The notes under the pieces: model-generated
The model's database searches: none
What the model saw: only the letters and a program-made list of their open reading frames with translations
What the model was told of the DNA's origin: nothing
Virus record (IMG/VR): IMGVR_UViG_2711768058_000006
Length of the DNA: 6,041 nt
Reading direction: 5' to 3' (one strand)
Source of the DNA: a virus
Taxonomy: Duplodnaviria; Heunggongvirae; Uroviricota; Caudoviricetes
In this document: piece by piece, positions 1,368-6,041 of the stretch
Layout: the number at the start of each line of letters is the position of its first letter
Numbering within the stretch: the stretch's first letter is position 1
Made by a program: the position numbers and the translations under genes

Positions 1368-2081
1368 CTATTCCTGCTTAAAGGCAGGCGTAATAGTATC
1401 TTCACCTTCACTACTTGATTTTTCAGTGTTAACACGTTTTTTCATATTCGCCCCGATGTTCTTAGATGGCTGTGTTTTGATAGCTACAGTGTTTACTGTG
1501 CCATAAGACACTAATCTGATCTGTTCAAATTCCAAATCAAATACCAGAGATTCGCTTGCCTCTTCTGTGTATTCGATGCCTGTTAAAACAACGTTCTCAA
1601 AAGTTTTATTTTCTGTAACAAGAAGAAAAGGCTGTCTACTGTCCATAATCTGATTCAGGTAATCTATAGCCAATGATCTTCTGTTCCCGTTCACCCCTGC
1701 ACTCTTTAACAAGCCAGGATCGCTTTTAATCGGTGTTTCAGTGATACGCCCTTTAAGAGAAAACTTATTATTCTTCACTTGAACGTGATCAGACACAGTA
1801 GCACCATTTTCTACGGGGTAGCTTGTGACATCTGCCGAACGTCTCACGTTCACATCGTCTACACTATCAAAGGCCAGTGCCATATAATTTTCATAAACGT
1901 CATTACCAGAAGATGCCAAGCCACTGGTAACAATAGCAAATCCATTCTCTCCTTTTGTTTTATTAGCTTTGCTATTTTCGTTTTTTGTAGAATTTATATC
2001 TTGTTCTGCTTTGTAAACAGCCTGAACGTGTTGTTCTGGGGAGTTTGCTGCACGTATGGTTAAAATCCCGGCGGTCGCCAT
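1368..2081 (-). CDS. Hypothetical protein, 237 aa; possible virion or tail-tip component (weak call)
   Basis: Intact ORF with ATG at 2079-2081 preceded by AAGGAAA, and last gene of the leftward operon. Lys/Asn/Ser-rich N-terminus and acidic C-terminal tail. The segment QPFLLVTENKTFENVVLTGIEYTEEASESLVFDLEFEQIRLV loosely resembles the C-terminus of lambda minor tail protein M (...VEFSAEFEQVVN, from memory). This is motif-level only. Confidence 0.6.
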   Translation of the reverse strand: MATAGILTIRAANSPEQHVQAVYKAEQDINSTKNENSKANKTKGENGFAIVTSGLASSGNDVYENYMALAFDSVDDVNVRRSADVTSYPVENGATVSDHVQVKNNKFSLKGRITETPIKSDPGLLKSAGVNGNRRSLAIDYLNQIMDSRQPFLLVTENKTFENVVLTGIEYTEEASESLVFDLEFEQIRLVSYGTVNTVAIKTQPSKNIGANMKKRVNTEKSSSEGEDTITPAFKQE

Positions 2082-2103
2082 AATAATAATTTTCCTTGTA
2101 ATG

Positions 2104-3948
2104 TTATGGGGGGAATTCCCCGCCGTTGGATTGTCCTGATAAGCTGGTTAATGTTAATGATTTCAAGAAGCTATCCCGACTTGCTCTCGCTGTAAAATCC
2201 ACATAATCGCTTAATCTTGATGTGTCAGAATTAATAGTAAGCGGAACCTCTGTTACCACTTCAAATGTAGGATTCAGATTAAACACAGGAGATAAATTAT
2301 AAGCCGGAGTTGTCATTGCAAGATTATTTAAAGCACCCTGTTTGAGATTGGTTATCGGTGCTTCGCTGACTGACATTTTTACATCTGACACAGAAGATTT
2401 ATCATCGAAAAGCAATCCCTTAATCGTGTTAAAGAGAGAATGACTATTATCAGGTGTAGTTGTTGCAGTGCCAGCGCCTTTATATTGATCAGGAACGAGA
2501 TCAGAAAGATTTTGTTTCATTCCATCATTACTCAAAGGCGGTGCATCCCCCATATTTTTCTGAATAGCTTCCGTCTTATCATCATTACGATTAAACCAGT
2601 TTACAATCTTCATAATAGCTTCAAAGAGACTTCCTGTAGCTTCTCCTAGCTTCGTAAAATACGGAGTGAGATTAGAAAGGTTTTTCATAAACTCTTCCGT
2701 TACTTTTGGATCAAGAGATTTCATAAAGCCGTCTACGAATGCTACTTGCCTTGCATCAGAAAGCTGTGAAAGCTGTCTGTTTAGTTCTCTGAATTTAACA
2801 ATAGAGTCTTGCTGTGTTTCTGTTAGCCATTGTCCGGCGGCTTTTTGCTGATTAATACTTTCTTGTACATCTTTAACGGAACGTTGCCAATATTTTGACG
2901 TAAGCATCAAATCATCGCCCAGGTCTTCTAAACGTTGTCCAATTTGGGAGTCTGAAAAACCTTTTTTCATCATTCCATTAACAGCCTTAGAAATTAATCC
3001 GGCTGGATTATCAGCAAATTTTTTAAGGTCGCTTTTGTTAATAACACCGATGTTTAGAAGTTCATTAATAGCGTTATCACCGCCTTTCCATTCGCCGCCT
3101 TTACCAGTTTTTTTATCGACTACATATTCAGCTTCACTATAGGATTTTGCGGCACGTTCCCTAACATCTTTCATCTGATCCAGGTATTTCCTAGCCCCTT
3201 GATCACCCATCATAGAGTCAACGCCGTTTCTATACGCCCATTCTGTAATATTATACATCTGGTTAACGTCTACACCGCCAAGCCTTGCACGTTGGATTAA
3301 TTCTCCTTGTGTTTCAGCATTAGCGAAGCTGTTAGCCATAAATTCAGAGGTTTTACTAACAGCCATCACGCCAGCAGCAGCCGTAGCGCCTCCAAATAAC
3401 AGAGCGCCCATAGTGGCGGAGTTCCCTGATCCTCCCTTAACGGGGGCTAATTGAGCTTTTCTGTTGCCATTAATCTTACGTTGTTGCTGTTGTAGGCGTT
3501 TCATCTGACTATTCATACGTGCAAGCGAGATAGCCCCTTGCTCATATTGTTTTGCTATCTCTCTAGCCTGTGCAATAGCTTTGTATTGTTCCGCTACAGA
3601 GAGGCGGTGCATTGCACTGATAGAGCTTGACACATCGAGGAGCTTTAATTCTGCTTTCTCCTTACGTGCTGCTATTTGTTGCTGTTGCCTTGCCTGTGCT
3701 CTTGCTGCGGCAGCTTGTGCTCTTTGATTCTGTTTTTCGTTTTTCGCTTTCTGTTGAGCAATCTTGTCTACCTCGTTTTGTGCTTTCTTATAGCCTTTAG
3801 TGACAGTATCGAATCTTAATTTAGCTGGCTTGATATTTTCTGCGAATTCCTTTAAGCCTGTAATAGAGTCTTTCGCTTTTTTCAAGCTGTCTTTATCTAC
3901 ACTAAATGTAACTGTGTTCTTAATTTTAGAAGTGTTAATTTCTAACAT
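2104..3948 (-). CDS. Large coiled-coil protein, 614 aa; tail tape-measure-like or internal virion protein-like (hypothesis)
   Basis: ATG at 3946-3948 with SD AAGGGGA 6 nt upstream. The N-terminal third is Q/A/R/K-rich low-complexity coiled coil (QKAKNEKQNQRAQAAAARAQARQQQQIAARKEKAELK, about 3650-3720). This is followed by a Gly/Ala-rich hydrophobic stretch GGSGNSATMGALLFGGATAAAGVMAVS (about 3355-3435) and a long, apparently helical C-terminal region. That combination is typical of phage tape-measure or minor tail proteins, but no family is confirmed. Confidence 0.7.
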   Translation of the reverse strand: MLEINTSKIKNTVTFSVDKDSLKKAKDSITGLKEFAENIKPAKLRFDTVTKGYKKAQNEVDKIAQQKAKNEKQNQRAQAAAARAQARQQQQIAARKEKAELKLLDVSSSISAMHRLSVAEQYKAIAQAREIAKQYEQGAISLARMNSQMKRLQQQQRKINGNRKAQLAPVKGGSGNSATMGALLFGGATAAAGVMAVSKTSEFMANSFANAETQGELIQRARLGGVDVNQMYNITEWAYRNGVDSMMGDQGARKYLDQMKDVRERAAKSYSEAEYVVDKKTGKGGEWKGGDNAINELLNIGVINKSDLKKFADNPAGLISKAVNGMMKKGFSDSQIGQRLEDLGDDLMLTSKYWQRSVKDVQESINQQKAAGQWLTETQQDSIVKFRELNRQLSQLSDARQVAFVDGFMKSLDPKVTEEFMKNLSNLTPYFTKLGEATGSLFEAIMKIVNWFNRNDDKTEAIQKNMGDAPPLSNDGMKQNLSDLVPDQYKGAGTATTTPDNSHSLFNTIKGLLFDDKSSVSDVKMSVSEAPITNLKQGALNNLAMTTPAYNLSPVFNLNPTFEVVTEVPLTINSDTSRLSDYVDFTARASRDSFLKSLTLTSLSGQSNGGEFPP

Positions 3949-3962
3949 TTAAAATCCCCTTA

Positions 3963-4166
3963 TTAATCATTTTTATCACCTTCTTTGCTTAAGAAATGGT
4001 GTAGAGCCTGATCAATGCTCTCGTTTAATCTGAACATACGGGCTTTTACGCCTTCATAGGGAACATCTAAAAGAGAACATAGATATTTCAGATTTAACAA
4101 GCCTCTAGAATCATTAGCATCTAAATGTACGTGTACACCATTTTTTGATTTCAGAATCACTTCCAT
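3963..4166 (-). CDS. Small hypothetical protein, 67 aa
   Basis: ATG at 4164-4166 with a strong SD (AGAGGTGA, about 8 nt spacing). Its stop lies 14 bp before the 614-aa start, and it sits immediately downstream of the 4209-4235 hairpin. No recognisable motif. Confidence 0.55.
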   Translation of the reverse strand: MEVILKSKNGVHVHLDANDSRGLLNLKYLCSLLDVPYEGVKARMFRLNESIDQALHHFLSKEGDKND

Positions 4167-4190
4167 ATTTTAATCACCTCTCAAAATTTA

Positions 4191-4235
4191 AAAAAATAAA
4201 TAAAAAAAGGCGAAGCGTGAATACACGCCACGCCT
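4191..4235 (-). terminator. Rho-independent terminator or attenuator on the minus strand, immediately after the 342-aa gene
   Basis: GC-rich hairpin: + strand GGCGAAGCGTG (4209-4219), loop AATA, CACGCCACGCC (4224-4234), giving 9 of 11 pairs. On the minus strand it is followed by a long U-tract (+ strand A-run 4191-4208, AAAAAAATAAATAAAAAAA). Its position inside the operon suggests partial termination, which would give higher expression of the upstream 120-aa and 342-aa genes. Confidence 0.6.
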
Positions 4236-4253
4236 CTATTACACGTTAAAATA

Positions 4254-5282
4254 TTATTTAACAGTGATTTGAACGGAGAAGCCTACACCGTGGTTTACCA
4301 CCATCTGGCTATTCTCGGTCACTACGTGCACTGCGTCGCCGCGAGAACCCTCATAACTATAGCTATACACCTCAGCAGGAGCGGCATTAATCAGTTCAAA
4401 GGTGCTGGAAGCTGCCCCGTAGATGCTCTGGTAGACGTTAGAGAATTTAGAGAACTTCGGAATCGCAACCGCATCAGAAGTCATATGTGCAAGGTGTAGC
4501 GGATCTACCAGTTTAACAACATCAATGTTAGTTCCTGGAATAGTGAACGCTGTCACTCCTGGTAGCAGGTCACGACGCTGATACACAACATTCCCTTCTT
4601 CCAGTGGGCTTACATACTGGAATGCGTTTGCCATACCAGCAGAGAATCGAATTGCAGAGAAGGCTTCCGGCTTACAGAAAACAACAATACGCTCTACAGC
4701 CGCCGCCTGACTCTGTGCTTTTTCGATAATGTCAGTAGCAATCTGATCAAATTCTTTAAAAATCTTCGTGGTGTCAGTGCTGGAAGCGTTCACAGTGGCT
4801 TTCATAGCTGATACGTTAAACAGCTTGCCCCACTCAATTAACACATCATCAGTTTTAGGCGTGTAAGTTTTGCCAGAGAACAAAGAAGCCGCCAACACGC
4901 TCTCTTTAGTACGCTGGAATGCAACATTGTGTTTAGCGATATATTCCGCATAGATATCAGTGAGTGTTTCCTGAAAATCAGTGCCAGGCTTACGCTTGCC
5001 TTGAACATCAGAAGGTCTAATCACATCCTCACGAAGAAAATACGGGATTTCGATCAGCCATTCTTTACCTTGTTCTCGCTTAGTAACGTTGTGTTCAGAA
5101 GAGAAACGAGAGGTTTCTTTGTTGAACAGAGATTCGTTGCTTTCGACAAGCTGGGAAACAGCTACTTTATGAGAACTAACGCCCACCGGATCAGTGAAGT
5201 CGAGAGTAGAAAGTAGATAATTTCTAGTGCTATGCGCAGAGAACAAAGGAGCTAAATCAACGTAATCATTACCTAGAATCAT
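4254..5282 (-). CDS. Putative major capsid protein, HK97-fold-like, 342 aa (hypothesis)
   Basis: ATG at 5280-5282 with SD AAAGGAA. The internal segment AVERIVVFCKPEAFSAIRFSAGMANAFQYVSPLEEGN parallels a segment I recall from T7 gp10 (DRVFYCDPDSYSAILAALMPNAANYAALIDPEKGS) and, more loosely, lambda gpE (IIVFDPKGWALFRSF). Length is close to lambda E (341 aa). The gene is followed by a strong terminator, consistent with a highly expressed structural protein. Not verified by any search. Confidence 0.7.
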   Translation of the reverse strand: MILGNDYVDLAPLFSAHSTRNYLLSTLDFTDPVGVSSHKVAVSQLVESNESLFNKETSRFSSEHNVTKREQGKEWLIEIPYFLREDVIRPSDVQGKRKPGTDFQETLTDIYAEYIAKHNVAFQRTKESVLAASLFSGKTYTPKTDDVLIEWGKLFNVSAMKATVNASSTDTTKIFKEFDQIATDIIEKAQSQAAAVERIVVFCKPEAFSAIRFSAGMANAFQYVSPLEEGNVVYQRRDLLPGVTAFTIPGTNIDVVKLVDPLHLAHMTSDAVAIPKFSKFSNVYQSIYGAASSTFELINAAPAEVYSYSYEGSRGDAVHVVTENSQMVVNHGVGFSVQITVK

Positions 5283-5300
5283 TTATTATTATTCCTTTTA

Positions 5301-5663
5301 TTAAGAAGTGAAAACAGAGTGGAACCCTTCAAGCTGGAAGCCTTTTTTAATTAATGCTGTTTTTGCTGCTTCACTTACAGCATTCAGCGCATCAGCTTTG
5401 ATGCAGACAAGGCCAGCATTAGCACGAAGCACATCTACAGGCTTGTTTTCTCCAGCCGTTACAAATTCACTCATAACAACATAGATATCATCTCCTGATT
5501 CATATTTAGCGCCCGTGCTGGTGATCAAGTCTCCGCACTCAACATCAGCAGGAAGAGAAGCAAAAACCTTGCTTTCTACAGAGGCAAACGGATCAGTACA
5601 ATAACTTACAATATCTGTGAAAGTCTTTCGAACTGGAAATAGAGCGTCTAAATCAATAATCAT
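5301..5663 (-). CDS. Hypothetical protein, 120 aa; possible capsid accessory (decoration or scaffold-like) protein, based on position only
   Basis: ATG at 5661-5663 with a canonical SD (AAGGAGA, 8 nt spacing). It sits directly upstream of the capsid-like gene, analogous to a small head-accessory gene preceding a capsid gene. No sequence motif recognised. Confidence 0.65.
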   Translation of the reverse strand: MIIDLDALFPVRKTFTDIVSYCTDPFASVESKVFASLPADVECGDLITSTGAKYESGDDIYVVMSEFVTAGENKPVDVLRANAGLVCIKADALNAVSEAAKTALIKKGFQLEGFHSVFTS

Positions 5664-5872
5664 TTAGTAATCTCCTTAGCTTTTAATTTGATTAATTCAT
5701 TAAGGGAAGGTGTAGACGGAGAAGAAGGAGAAAAATATTTTTCAACACATCTTTCTACTTCCTCGACAGAACACCCAGCGTATTTAGCTACCATTTCGGT
5801 AATTTGTGGAGTAATTCGCAGCATTTCATTTTTATATTTTATGATTTGCTCTTTATCGTTTAAAAACAACAT
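5660..5872 (-). CDS. Small hypothetical protein, 70 aa; possible helix-turn-helix DNA-binding protein
   Basis: First gene of the leftward operon. ATG at 5870-5872 with a weak SD (AAGGT). Its TGA stop overlaps the ATG of the 120-aa gene (ATGA at 5660-5663), suggesting translational coupling. The segment ITEMVAKYAGCSVEEVERCVEKY has an HTH-like helix-turn-helix pattern. Confidence 0.55.
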   Translation of the reverse strand: MLFLNDKEQIIKYKNEMLRITPQITEMVAKYAGCSVEEVERCVEKYFSPSSPSTPSLNELIKLKAKEITK

Positions 5873-6028
5873 TTATATAAACCTTGTTACCTTGTTTAAA
5901 GTAAGAAATACAACTTTTAAGTTGCATAACGGGCAAAATAAAAGGCAGCATTTAAAGCCGCCTTTGTAATTACCCTATGTTATGCACACTCCAAGATGTA
6001 TGCATAACAAAGGAAAGAGGTATAGGTA
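5873..6028. promoter_or_regulatory. Divergent promoter/operator region with repeated operator-like half-sites
   Basis: Perfect inverted repeat TGTTATGCA (5978-5986) / TGCATAACA (6001-6009) with a 14-bp spacer. A third copy of the half-site, TGCATAAC, lies at 5923-5930. There is a dyad CAACTT-TT-AAGTTG at 5911-5924 and a tandem repeat CCTTGTTA/CCTTGTTT at 5882-5897 next to the 70-aa start. Exact -35/-10 elements could not be assigned with confidence. Confidence 0.45.
5931..5966 (-). terminator. Terminator-like hairpin on the minus strand inside the right intergenic region
   Basis: Minus-strand sequence AAAGGCGGC-tttaaat-GCTGCCTTT (9-bp stem with one G-U pair, + strand 5941-5966) followed by TTTTATTTTG (+ strand 5931-5940). 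Confidence 0.35.
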
Positions 6029-6041
6029 ATGACTCCAACTT
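6029..6041 (+). CDS. Possible 5' end of a rightward gene, truncated by the window edge; product unknown
   Basis: ATG at 6029-6031 preceded by AAAGGAAAGAGG (AGAGG 8 nt upstream). Only 4 codons are visible. The alternative is that a minus-strand gene from beyond the window ends at the TAA at 5969-5971 (that frame is open from 5972 to 6041). Confidence 0.25.

Follow-up and report, generated by a model that had tools for sequence, protein, structure and literature searches.

The 6,041-nt stretch of viral DNA analysed here (IMG/VR record IMGVR_UViG_2711768058_000006; the window) carries a six-gene operon and an integrase gene that belong to an integrated island of Escherichia coli, a candidate phage satellite. 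The six open reading frames (ORFs) are co-directional on the minus strand, span positions 5872 down to 1368 and encode, in order of transcription, proteins of 70 amino acids (5660–5872), 120 amino acids (5301–5663; a head decoration protein by fold), 342 amino acids (4254–5282; the major capsid protein), 67 amino acids (3963–4166), 614 amino acids (2104–3948; the tape measure protein, TMP) and 237 amino acids (1368–2081; a Dit-like baseplate tube initiator). They converge on a plus-strand tyrosine integrase gene (1–1286), an orthologue of IntF of the thrW/CP4-6 site; this arrangement had been described in the initial annotation and is confirmed by the ORFs and by the integrase families matched (Pfam Phage_integrase, 1e-17; Phage_int_SAM_5; DUF6538). 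Intact copies of the integrase are 425–444 amino acids long; in the window the frame stays open as far as position 3, and the 5′ end is at the window edge or a little beyond it. The close packing attributed to the operon (gaps of 14–22 bp and one overlap) holds for the 4-nt overlap between the 70-aa gene and the decoration gene and for gaps of 18, 14 and 22 nt, and does not hold for the 87 nt after the capsid gene, which contain a terminator-like hairpin directly 3′ of that gene (minus strand, 4212–4236). Similarly, the intact ribosome-binding sites claimed were found as Shine–Dalgarno-like sequences ahead of five genes, with a weak one ahead of the 70-aa gene. From the overlap, the 70-aa gene is predicted to be translationally coupled to the decoration gene. 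An uninterrupted E. coli copy of the island (L001) was used to define the element; in its coordinates the hairpin after the capsid gene was recovered at 11047–11071 in a terminator scan.

Capsid-like and tape-measure-like products had been proposed, and both assignments stand. The 342-aa protein, of the HK97 fold and lambda-E/phi92 type, matched Pfam Phage_cap_E (1.2e-14) and, in the PDB, a Pakpunavirus P7-1 chain (9zbi_A, 9e-11) and phi92 gp124 (21uy_N, 1e-6), with which it aligns end to end at 22% identity (17–24% to phage capsid proteins). The 120-aa protein had no family match in Pfam, PHROG, PADLOC or NCBIfam and no similarity to phi92 gp123 by BLASTP or by hhalign profile comparison. Its AlphaFold2 (AF2) model reached a pLDDT of only 59, and the four top Foldseek matches in the PDB were all full-length matches to chains of capsid reconstructions (Bas63 9ncf_J, phiTE 9cul_a/c and Sf14 9c2d_P; probability 0.95–1.0, TM 0.54–0.60, E 0.005–0.03), followed in fifth place by SHP (1td0, probability 0.25). 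The Bas63, phiTE and Sf14 chains are taken by us to be decoration proteins on the basis of their size, as the entries give titles only. The 120-aa gene lies directly upstream of the capsid gene, as gp123 does in phi92, and the decoration proteins of island and phage both end in VFTS-stop, the last 17 nt being identical (window 5300–5316; phage alia 5780–5796). Fold and position, the main respects in which it matches gp123, suggest a head decoration protein. Since decoration proteins of the gpD/SHP type serve a purpose only once the capsid lattice has expanded, such a protein would favour the formation of real particles.

The 614-aa protein matched PHROG 16051 (tape measure, 4e-53) and phi92 gp134 (PDB 21vq_V, 6e-38), and tblastn returned the TMPs of Stephanstirmvirinae, with about 30% identity to known phages. 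In full-length alignment three parts are conserved: the N-terminal ~35 residues, a central domain (NGVDS...KDVRERL...GGD...LGDDLM) and the C-terminus (EVPLTI..SD.SRLSDYIDF...SGQS). Island TMPs are ~45 coiled-coil residues shorter than phage TMPs, and island alleles are as distant from one another as from the phage proteins; the first 87 nt of the gene are 85% identical to the phage gene at the DNA level. The 237-aa protein, which had been considered a possible tail-tip protein, is instead a tube initiator (Pfam Dit_like, 3.6e-29; phi92 gp135, 21vq_N, 1.2e-78; phiTE 'tube initiator', 9cuy_K, 2e-13; also Pam3 gp17) and is 58–61% identical to the proteins of phi92-like phages. In phiTE the tube initiator forms the six-fold first ring of the baseplate hub, and the C-terminus of the TMP binds in the hub module (PMC11972413); by homology, the 237-aa protein is predicted to be a hub component and not a tail tip. 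TMP and tube initiator are orthologous to gp134 and gp135 over their full length, termini included. Taken together, the 17-nt identity at the 3′ end of the decoration gene and the 85% identity at the 5′ end of the TMP gene suggest that island and phage have recombined, with joints at gene boundaries. Virion-protein homology or fold is thus seen in four of the six products, where two or three had been expected: the capsid protein and TMP were retained, the possible tail-tip protein became the tube initiator and, by fold, the decoration protein was added.

The phi92 structural genes run in the order gp122 (scaffold), gp123 (decoration), gp124 (capsid), terminator, gp125–129, gp130–gp132, gp133, gp134 (TMP), gp135 (tube initiator), gp136 and gp137 (hub). 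We take gp130 (468 aa) to be the sheath and gp131 (159 aa) the tube from size and position, the record giving no function, and gp125–gp132 presumably comprise head completion, sheath, tube and chaperone. The island order (70-aa gene, decoration, capsid with its terminator, 67-aa gene, TMP, tube initiator) is a collinear subset of this module. Island and phage share the gene order, three orthologues (TMP, tube initiator and, distantly, capsid) and the terminator after the capsid gene, which in phi92 follows gp124, whereas the scaffold, gp125–gp132 and all genes after gp135 are without counterpart in the island.

The extent of the element was determined from att direct repeats, which were found at thrW: the 3′ end of this tRNA-Thr gene is repeated 12,652 bp downstream in L001 (28-bp repeats, 26 of 28 nt identical). 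The flanks consist of proBA and thrW on one side and of a LysR-family gene fragment (yagP in K-12) and paoDCBA on the other. This is the site of the cryptic prophage CP4-6 in K-12, which has only the intF integrase and the site in common with the island. G+C content is 39% in the island, 53–58% in the flanks and 37.6% in the phage. Between the repeats 15 proteins are encoded. The far end of the island carries a 50-aa ORF and then the gene of a 179-aa serine recombinase that matched PHROG 'DNA invertase' (6e-55) and whose start is preceded by short repeats. A gene-free AT-rich stretch of 2.3 kb contains five 16–21-nt iterons and a second repeat set; at L001 5235–5556, a likely replication origin, five copies of GGGTAGGTCAYWGTGAACTA are arranged in two clusters around three or four copies of ACCTAGGAAATGAGTTCC, with AT-rich tracts adjoining. 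A strong sigma-70-like early promoter is followed by genes of 58, 55, 230, 92, 136 and 112 amino acids, of which the 230-aa product is a winged-helix protein with an HTH_36 domain that matched PHROG replication initiators (1.5e-9; an initiator-like protein of the HTH_36/phage-O-like type). Judged by these features, the element is probably able to replicate itself.

No terminase, portal, protease, connector or tail-tube gene had been seen between the six genes, and this proved true of the whole att-bounded island: terminase, portal, protease, scaffold, connector, sheath and tube families were without Pfam or PHROG match in the 15 proteins, and no baseplate gene besides the tube initiator was present. 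When the whole genome of a phi92-like phage (Justusliebigvirus) was compared by tblastn and tblastx, only capsid, TMP and tube initiator matched, and no pseudogene traces of portal, terminase, sheath or tube were detected. The lack of terminase, portal, protease, scaffold, sheath, tube and further baseplate genes means that the element is not part of a larger prophage.

The locus recurs as a unit in E. coli and other Enterobacterales. Of 5,426 complete E. coli genomes, 240 carry more than 80% of the window and 606 carry parts of it, which puts the island in roughly 4–11% of them, according to the portion that is required. Alleles are mosaic and the slot order is kept. The island of strain ECGC74, also at thrW, has a capsid protein only 17% identical to that of the window and still homologous (hhalign probability 98%), and that of EC571 is inserted at tRNA-Gly with an integrase of 34% identity. 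Homologues of the capsid protein, 37–63% identical, were obtained from Citrobacter, Enterobacter, Cronobacter, Klebsiella, Dryocola, Sodalis and Serratia. Loci were inspected in Klebsiella, Serratia, Sodalis and a metagenome contig (L024); all keep the layout of the core (~70-aa gene, ~120-aa gene, capsid, ~65-aa gene, TMP), most have an initiator-like gene (none was recognisable in the Serratia locus), and all have a convergent integrase save Sodalis, in which none adjoins the operon. The tube initiator is present in Sodalis and absent from the Klebsiella, Serratia and metagenome islands. A profile search of genome contigs with the tube-initiator alignment returned one locus only, a phi92-like phage contig in a metagenome-assembled genome (MAG). 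The slot of the small recombinase is occupied by the 179-aa serine type in E. coli and by a 183–205-aa tyrosine type in the Klebsiella, Serratia, Sodalis and metagenome copies (L001 4095–4634; L020 2968–3585; L022 3138–3689; L023 3576–4133; L024 264–845), a non-homologous replacement at one position, and the E. coli MRE162 island has no small recombinase gene. The role of this enzyme could be multimer resolution or DNA inversion. Where divergence permitted, dN/dS was estimated for three genes, capsid (0.12), decoration (0.20) and TMP (0.19–0.25), and the values indicate purifying selection on these virion genes.

These data bear on the view that the operon is a decaying prophage remnant like CP4-6, or a piece of a complete prophage that continues beyond the window, which we consider very improbable. 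The island does sit at the CP4-6/intF site of K-12, some copies are hit by insertion sequences or truncated, and the IMG/VR matches are all prophage predictions from isolate genomes, not viromes. Against this, the ORFs are intact and under the selection described, and islands of the same att-bounded size and gene set are met again in other genera and at other att sites, in agreement with the earlier argument against decay. The pseudogenes that a remnant might have left were not seen in the translated comparisons with the phi92-like genome. The remaining morphogenesis genes were sought beyond the window, where none was present; att ends 12,652 bp apart and flanks of core chromosomal genes exclude the explanation that the rest of a prophage lies there. 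Large terminase, portal and tube/sheath genes, by which a complete Caudoviricetes prophage would be known, were lacking throughout the whole element as inspected in several genomes.

A link to a candidate helper came from the DNA termini. Searches of phage DNA with the whole window and with the gene-free stretch gave nothing useful, and the site described here surfaced only through a targeted comparison with the terminal repeat of phi92, annotated at 1–343. The best local alignment of the island with this repeat reached a score of 44, where 30 shuffles averaged 30 and never exceeded 37, and fell on phi92 285–347, where the repeat ends. The MRE162 island agrees with phi92 318–357 at 40 of 40 nt (E = 2.7e-17); the block reads ATCGGGGGGCGCTGAAAATCGCGTTA followed by AGCACCTCTCGCAA, and the junction of the two is the boundary between phi92 positions 343 and 344. 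The ECGC74 island has 39 of the 40 nt (E = 6.8e-15), and the allele of the L001/JMF1 type has 25 of 29 plus a second block of 16 of 17. The block lies ~1.25 kb from attL, outside the window, and is surrounded by DNA without relation to the phage. Among 50,697 phage records it was found in 54, all phi92-like, with one place each in the 40 of these 54 that were listed; the hosts of the 54, as written in the records, are E. coli, Salmonella, Serratia and Klebsiella and, on the label of some, Campylobacter. The six listed records that start at the repeat (among them phi92 under two accessions, UAB_1, PHB05 and VEcB) all have it at 318–357, and the repeat itself is annotated in two of the six. In complete E. 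coli genomes the block was present in 426 of 5,426, once or twice each; no annotated gene lay under it in the 12 matches listed, and the single match inspected was at the equivalent place inside a truncated island. A perfect short identity at the repeat boundary that is kept between otherwise very divergent alleles has the look expected of a hijacked packaging or terminus-generation signal, comparable to the cos site of P2 that is carried by P4, and points to a phi92-like helper and to a packaging route. As a separate observation, three islands in which the boundary site is missing or different gave matches of 16–22 nt to one place inside the phi92 repeat (phi92 72–93), at L017 17891–17913, L018 15663–15685 and L020 4067–4082; with E-values of 0.007–0.1, they may be mere promoter-like similarity.

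The same comparisons were used to weigh whether the island is, or descends from, a satellite or once-autonomous element of some other helper, possibly a temperate relative, with the likeness to phi92 due to common ancestry. The identities are moderate (tube initiator at most 61.5%, TMP about 30%, capsid about 22%), the islands outside E. coli have no terminal-repeat site, and the mutual distances of the island TMP alleles equal their distances from phage TMPs, all of which would fit such a history. Against it stand the 40-nt block, which is identical at all positions to phi92, alia, UAB_1, PHB05 and others and confined to that phage group, the 5′ end of the TMP gene with its high DNA identity, and the 50,697 phage records, in which no closer capsid, TMP or tube-initiator homologue was present. 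We regard another helper as unlikely overall and as possible especially for the islands outside E. coli.

Our interpretation, held with moderate confidence, is that the island is a phage satellite, that its helpers are large virulent myoviruses of the phi92-like group (Stephanstirmvirinae) and that the six genes are its late operon; a new satellite family of virulent ~148-kb myoviruses is probable. The gene content agrees with a generic description of a satellite, that is, integration and replication functions together with incomplete morphogenesis and packaging genes. More tentatively, and with rather less confidence than in the satellite interpretation as such, we propose that the product is a chimeric miniature virion of a new family, with the island's own capsid lattice, decoration protein, TMP and tube initiator and the rest from the helper, packaged via the mimic of the repeat boundary. 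On infection by a phi92-like helper the island would excise and replicate from its iterons, the small recombinase would resolve multimers, and read-through of the leader terminator would turn on the late operon. Island capsid and decoration proteins would then form a small head sized for 12.6 kb on the helper portal, with helper scaffold and protease, and the helper terminase would recognise the copied repeat boundary, cut and package the island DNA. The island TMP and tube initiator would replace gp134 and gp135 in the helper hub, so that helper tube and sheath would polymerise on them and the tail would be built on the satellite's ruler, while sheath, tube, baseplate, fibres and lysis functions would be supplied by the helper, whose yield would be lowered by the diversion of its parts. 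In one line, the island would encode the proteins that set the dimensions of the virion and leave its generic components to the helper.

We also considered an unpackaged island devoted to defence or interference, in which TMP and tube initiator would be dominant-negative mimics that enter the baseplate hub of an infecting phi92-like phage and give dead tails, and the capsid protein would serve as decoy or sensor. With a tube initiator 50–61% identical to the phage protein and both TMP ends conserved, co-assembly with phage parts is plausible, the island TMPs lack ~45 coiled-coil residues, and one report describes interference with tail assembly by mobile elements (PMC11364771). The capsid protein, at 17–24% identity to phage capsid proteins, is however too distant for mixed lattices, hence unsuited as a poison subunit, and comes with a decoration protein of its own. 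PADLOC on ten island proteins gave only weak helix-turn-helix or coiled-coil matches, and the integrase, the origin with its initiator and the copy of the repeat boundary would be superfluous for a static defence locus. The Klebsiella and Serratia islands, moreover, keep capsid and TMP without a tube initiator. We therefore rate a pure defence role as rather unlikely and, of the two readings given equal weight from the operon alone, favour the satellite on account of the integrase, the iterons, the initiator-like protein, the pair of capsid and decoration genes and the 40-nt copy. Known satellites interfere with their helpers, so that interference may be part of the truth; it is likely a side effect of the satellite rather than an alternative to it.

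Several observations weigh against the satellite interpretation. The capsid protein is only ~22% identical to that of the putative helper, and without a portal, scaffold and protease of its own its co-assembly with helper parts is a proposal only. Nothing found explains the benefit of a satellite-borne TMP and tube initiator, and the tube initiator is dispensable in some lineages. Only one boundary of the terminal repeat is mimicked; the site is degenerate in the window's own allele, and no trace of it was detected in the island at tRNA-Gly or in those of Klebsiella, Serratia, Sodalis and metagenome L024. Among the island genes no repressor, antirepressor or trigger could be recognised. An attP-type junction of a free circle was without match in metagenome contigs, and the lone attP-like junction in a viral contig proved to be a tandem array (L039), not a free circle. 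Individual copies are damaged: in E. coli JMF1 (L010), the closest sequenced copy, ISKpn26 splits the initiator-like gene, the gene-free stretch carries IS903B and IS481 abuts the start of the integrase gene (L010 21375–25317 and 12921–13961), which leaves the late operon intact and the copy probably immobile, and strain 05_3471 has lost everything beyond mid-capsid to IS600.

Comparison with known systems places the candidate satellite outside the gene sets of cf-PICIs, P4-like elements and classical PICIs (phage-inducible chromosomal islands), and it is most likely an undescribed kind of satellite. It resembles the cf-PICIs of Enterobacterales in being an integrative island of ~10–15 kb with its own HK97-fold capsid protein and, as proposed here, reliance on a helper for the rest of the virion. 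cf-PICIs encode portal, protease/scaffold, head–tail connectors, TerS and HNH, use only the tails of their temperate helpers and are not known to have TMP or baseplate genes. In the 15 island proteins, by contrast, portal, protease/scaffold, connectors, TerS and HNH were not found, TMP and tube initiator are present, and the helper implied is a virulent ~148-kb myovirus. With P4 and the cos-type PICIs the island shares a copied helper DNA-end site, which in P4 (cos) lets the helper terminase package the satellite, and tRNA-type integration by a tyrosine integrase, the site copied by the island being a direct-terminal-repeat boundary rather than cos. P4 uses Sid and Psu to re-size the capsid protein of its helper and is not known to encode capsid or tail proteins of its own; Sid, Psu, Delta and the alpha-primase had no Pfam or PHROG match in the 15 proteins, and where a primase does occur in some loci, it is part of an adjacent tandem element. 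Of the classical PICI set the integrase is present, and Phage_AlpA, primase and TerS were without match. Satellites of virulent phages are known in PLE of Vibrio cholerae (helper ICP1) and PICMI of Vibrionaceae, which the island would resemble in this respect. The PLE helper is a large lytic myovirus, and PLE likewise combines an iteron-type origin with an initiator of its own. To our knowledge, genes for capsid, decoration and tape measure proteins and for a tube initiator are lacking from both PLE and PICMI, and we know of no described satellite that encodes a tape measure or baseplate-hub protein. A PLE scaffold is reported to remodel the ICP1 coat protein (PMC10945586), and PICMI is described as being without capsid-remodelling genes (PMC10803314). 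A literature search by protein accessions, thrW, satellites of phi92, rV5 or Stephanstirmvirinae and new satellite families returned no description of the element; its coverage was not exhaustive.

Phages of the phi92-like group and Phapecoctavirus are common in therapy and biocontrol collections, and a broad host range is attributed to phi92-like phages in one report (PMC11984140). If the interpretation is correct, a satellite in about one in ten to one in twenty E. coli genomes hijacks and probably depresses such phages, which would affect efficacy and host-range predictions, and the island would be the first genetically tractable satellite–helper system for large virulent coliphages. Its division of labour, with its own capsid lattice and tail ruler and no portal or terminase, would be new with respect to P4, PICI, cf-PICI, PLE and PICMI, and would raise the questions of how a foreign capsid protein is nucleated at the portal of a helper and which functions, apart from setting tail length, a TMP has. 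The 40-nt match is a concrete candidate for the terminal-repeat packaging signal of phi92-like phages.

Signals for control of the operon were located in and around the window. An extended-10 sigma-70-like promoter (TTGACA-17-TGTTAATAT) lies at L001 9111–9139, directly after the 112-aa gene and just outside the window. It is followed by a leader of ~190 nt in L001 and up to about 1,000 nt among variants, with a terminator before the late operon (minus strand, window 5941–5965; L001 9318–9342 in the scan). By eye, a promoter-like sequence TTGACA-N17-TAATAT was recognised after the upstream gene in Serratia, Sodalis and E. coli L001-type islands and in weaker form elsewhere. Alignment of the leaders across variants gave no conserved RNA, the promoter being conserved in position only, and a scan with Rfam matched the tRNA alone. 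The arrangement of promoter, leader and terminator suggests control of the late operon by antitermination. A phage-type late-promoter motif common to island and phi92 was sought, and the phi92 structural region showed sigma-70-like promoters only. Between the convergent tube-initiator and integrase genes, a hairpin with a T-run read from the sequence (1291–1327) is likely a bidirectional terminator, and terminator-like sites occur at the equivalent place in L001 (13993–14016). After the tube-initiator gene lies the 17-nt motif TATAAAACGCTCTGTAA (minus strand, 1340–1356), which recurs as two inverted copies outside the window, at L001 6383–6399 and 6542–6558, 90–260 nt upstream of the early promoter. 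The motif occurs at these three positions in nearly all E. coli island copies and was absent from the phage DNA compared (phi92 1–50,000 and 56,604–82,127, the alia genome, and parts of phiWec188 and of the MAG phage); it may be an operator that links the early and late ends of the element.

The two small proteins of the operon are not recognisable as virion proteins. For the 70-aa protein no family match was obtained, and the homologues found were all close or near-identical; variants of its slot are 25–34% identical to one another, which points to a fast-evolving gene. The slot of the 67-aa protein is present in seven of seven island variants compared. Its AF2 model (pLDDT 76) consists of a beta-hairpin and two helices and had no Foldseek match, and neither BLASTP nor hhalign detected similarity to phi92 gp133 (75 aa), which holds the equivalent position. 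Across 14 small proteins of the two slots, scattered weak HTH-type matches only were recorded, and PADLOC and NCBIfam returned nothing for the proteins without assigned function.

Other elements lie in tandem with the island at thrW: one is P4-like and has a primase, another is a further integrase island bearing AlpA and AntA genes, and a third is a CbtA/YeeU toxin–antitoxin island (L002–L004 1–2400; L008 15603–21029; L009 26062–34016). The window itself is nearly identical to the JMF1 copy and differs from it at 2110, at 2118 and in the last 17 nt. These last 17 nt (6025–6041) differ from L001 also, and the first 13 nt match no other genome because IS481 abuts the integrase start in JMF1. The window's TMP, at 614 amino acids, is longer than the 610-aa TMP of the E. 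coli copies with which it was compared (L001–L009 and JMF1), owing to a stop-loss single-nucleotide change: the change at 2118 converts TAA to GAA and adds EFPP (window 2104–2121) to a C-terminus otherwise conserved with phage TMPs. This stop-loss could be a sequencing error or a real variant. The changes at 2110 and 2118 break a GGCGGG/CCCGCC hairpin and create an EcoRI site.

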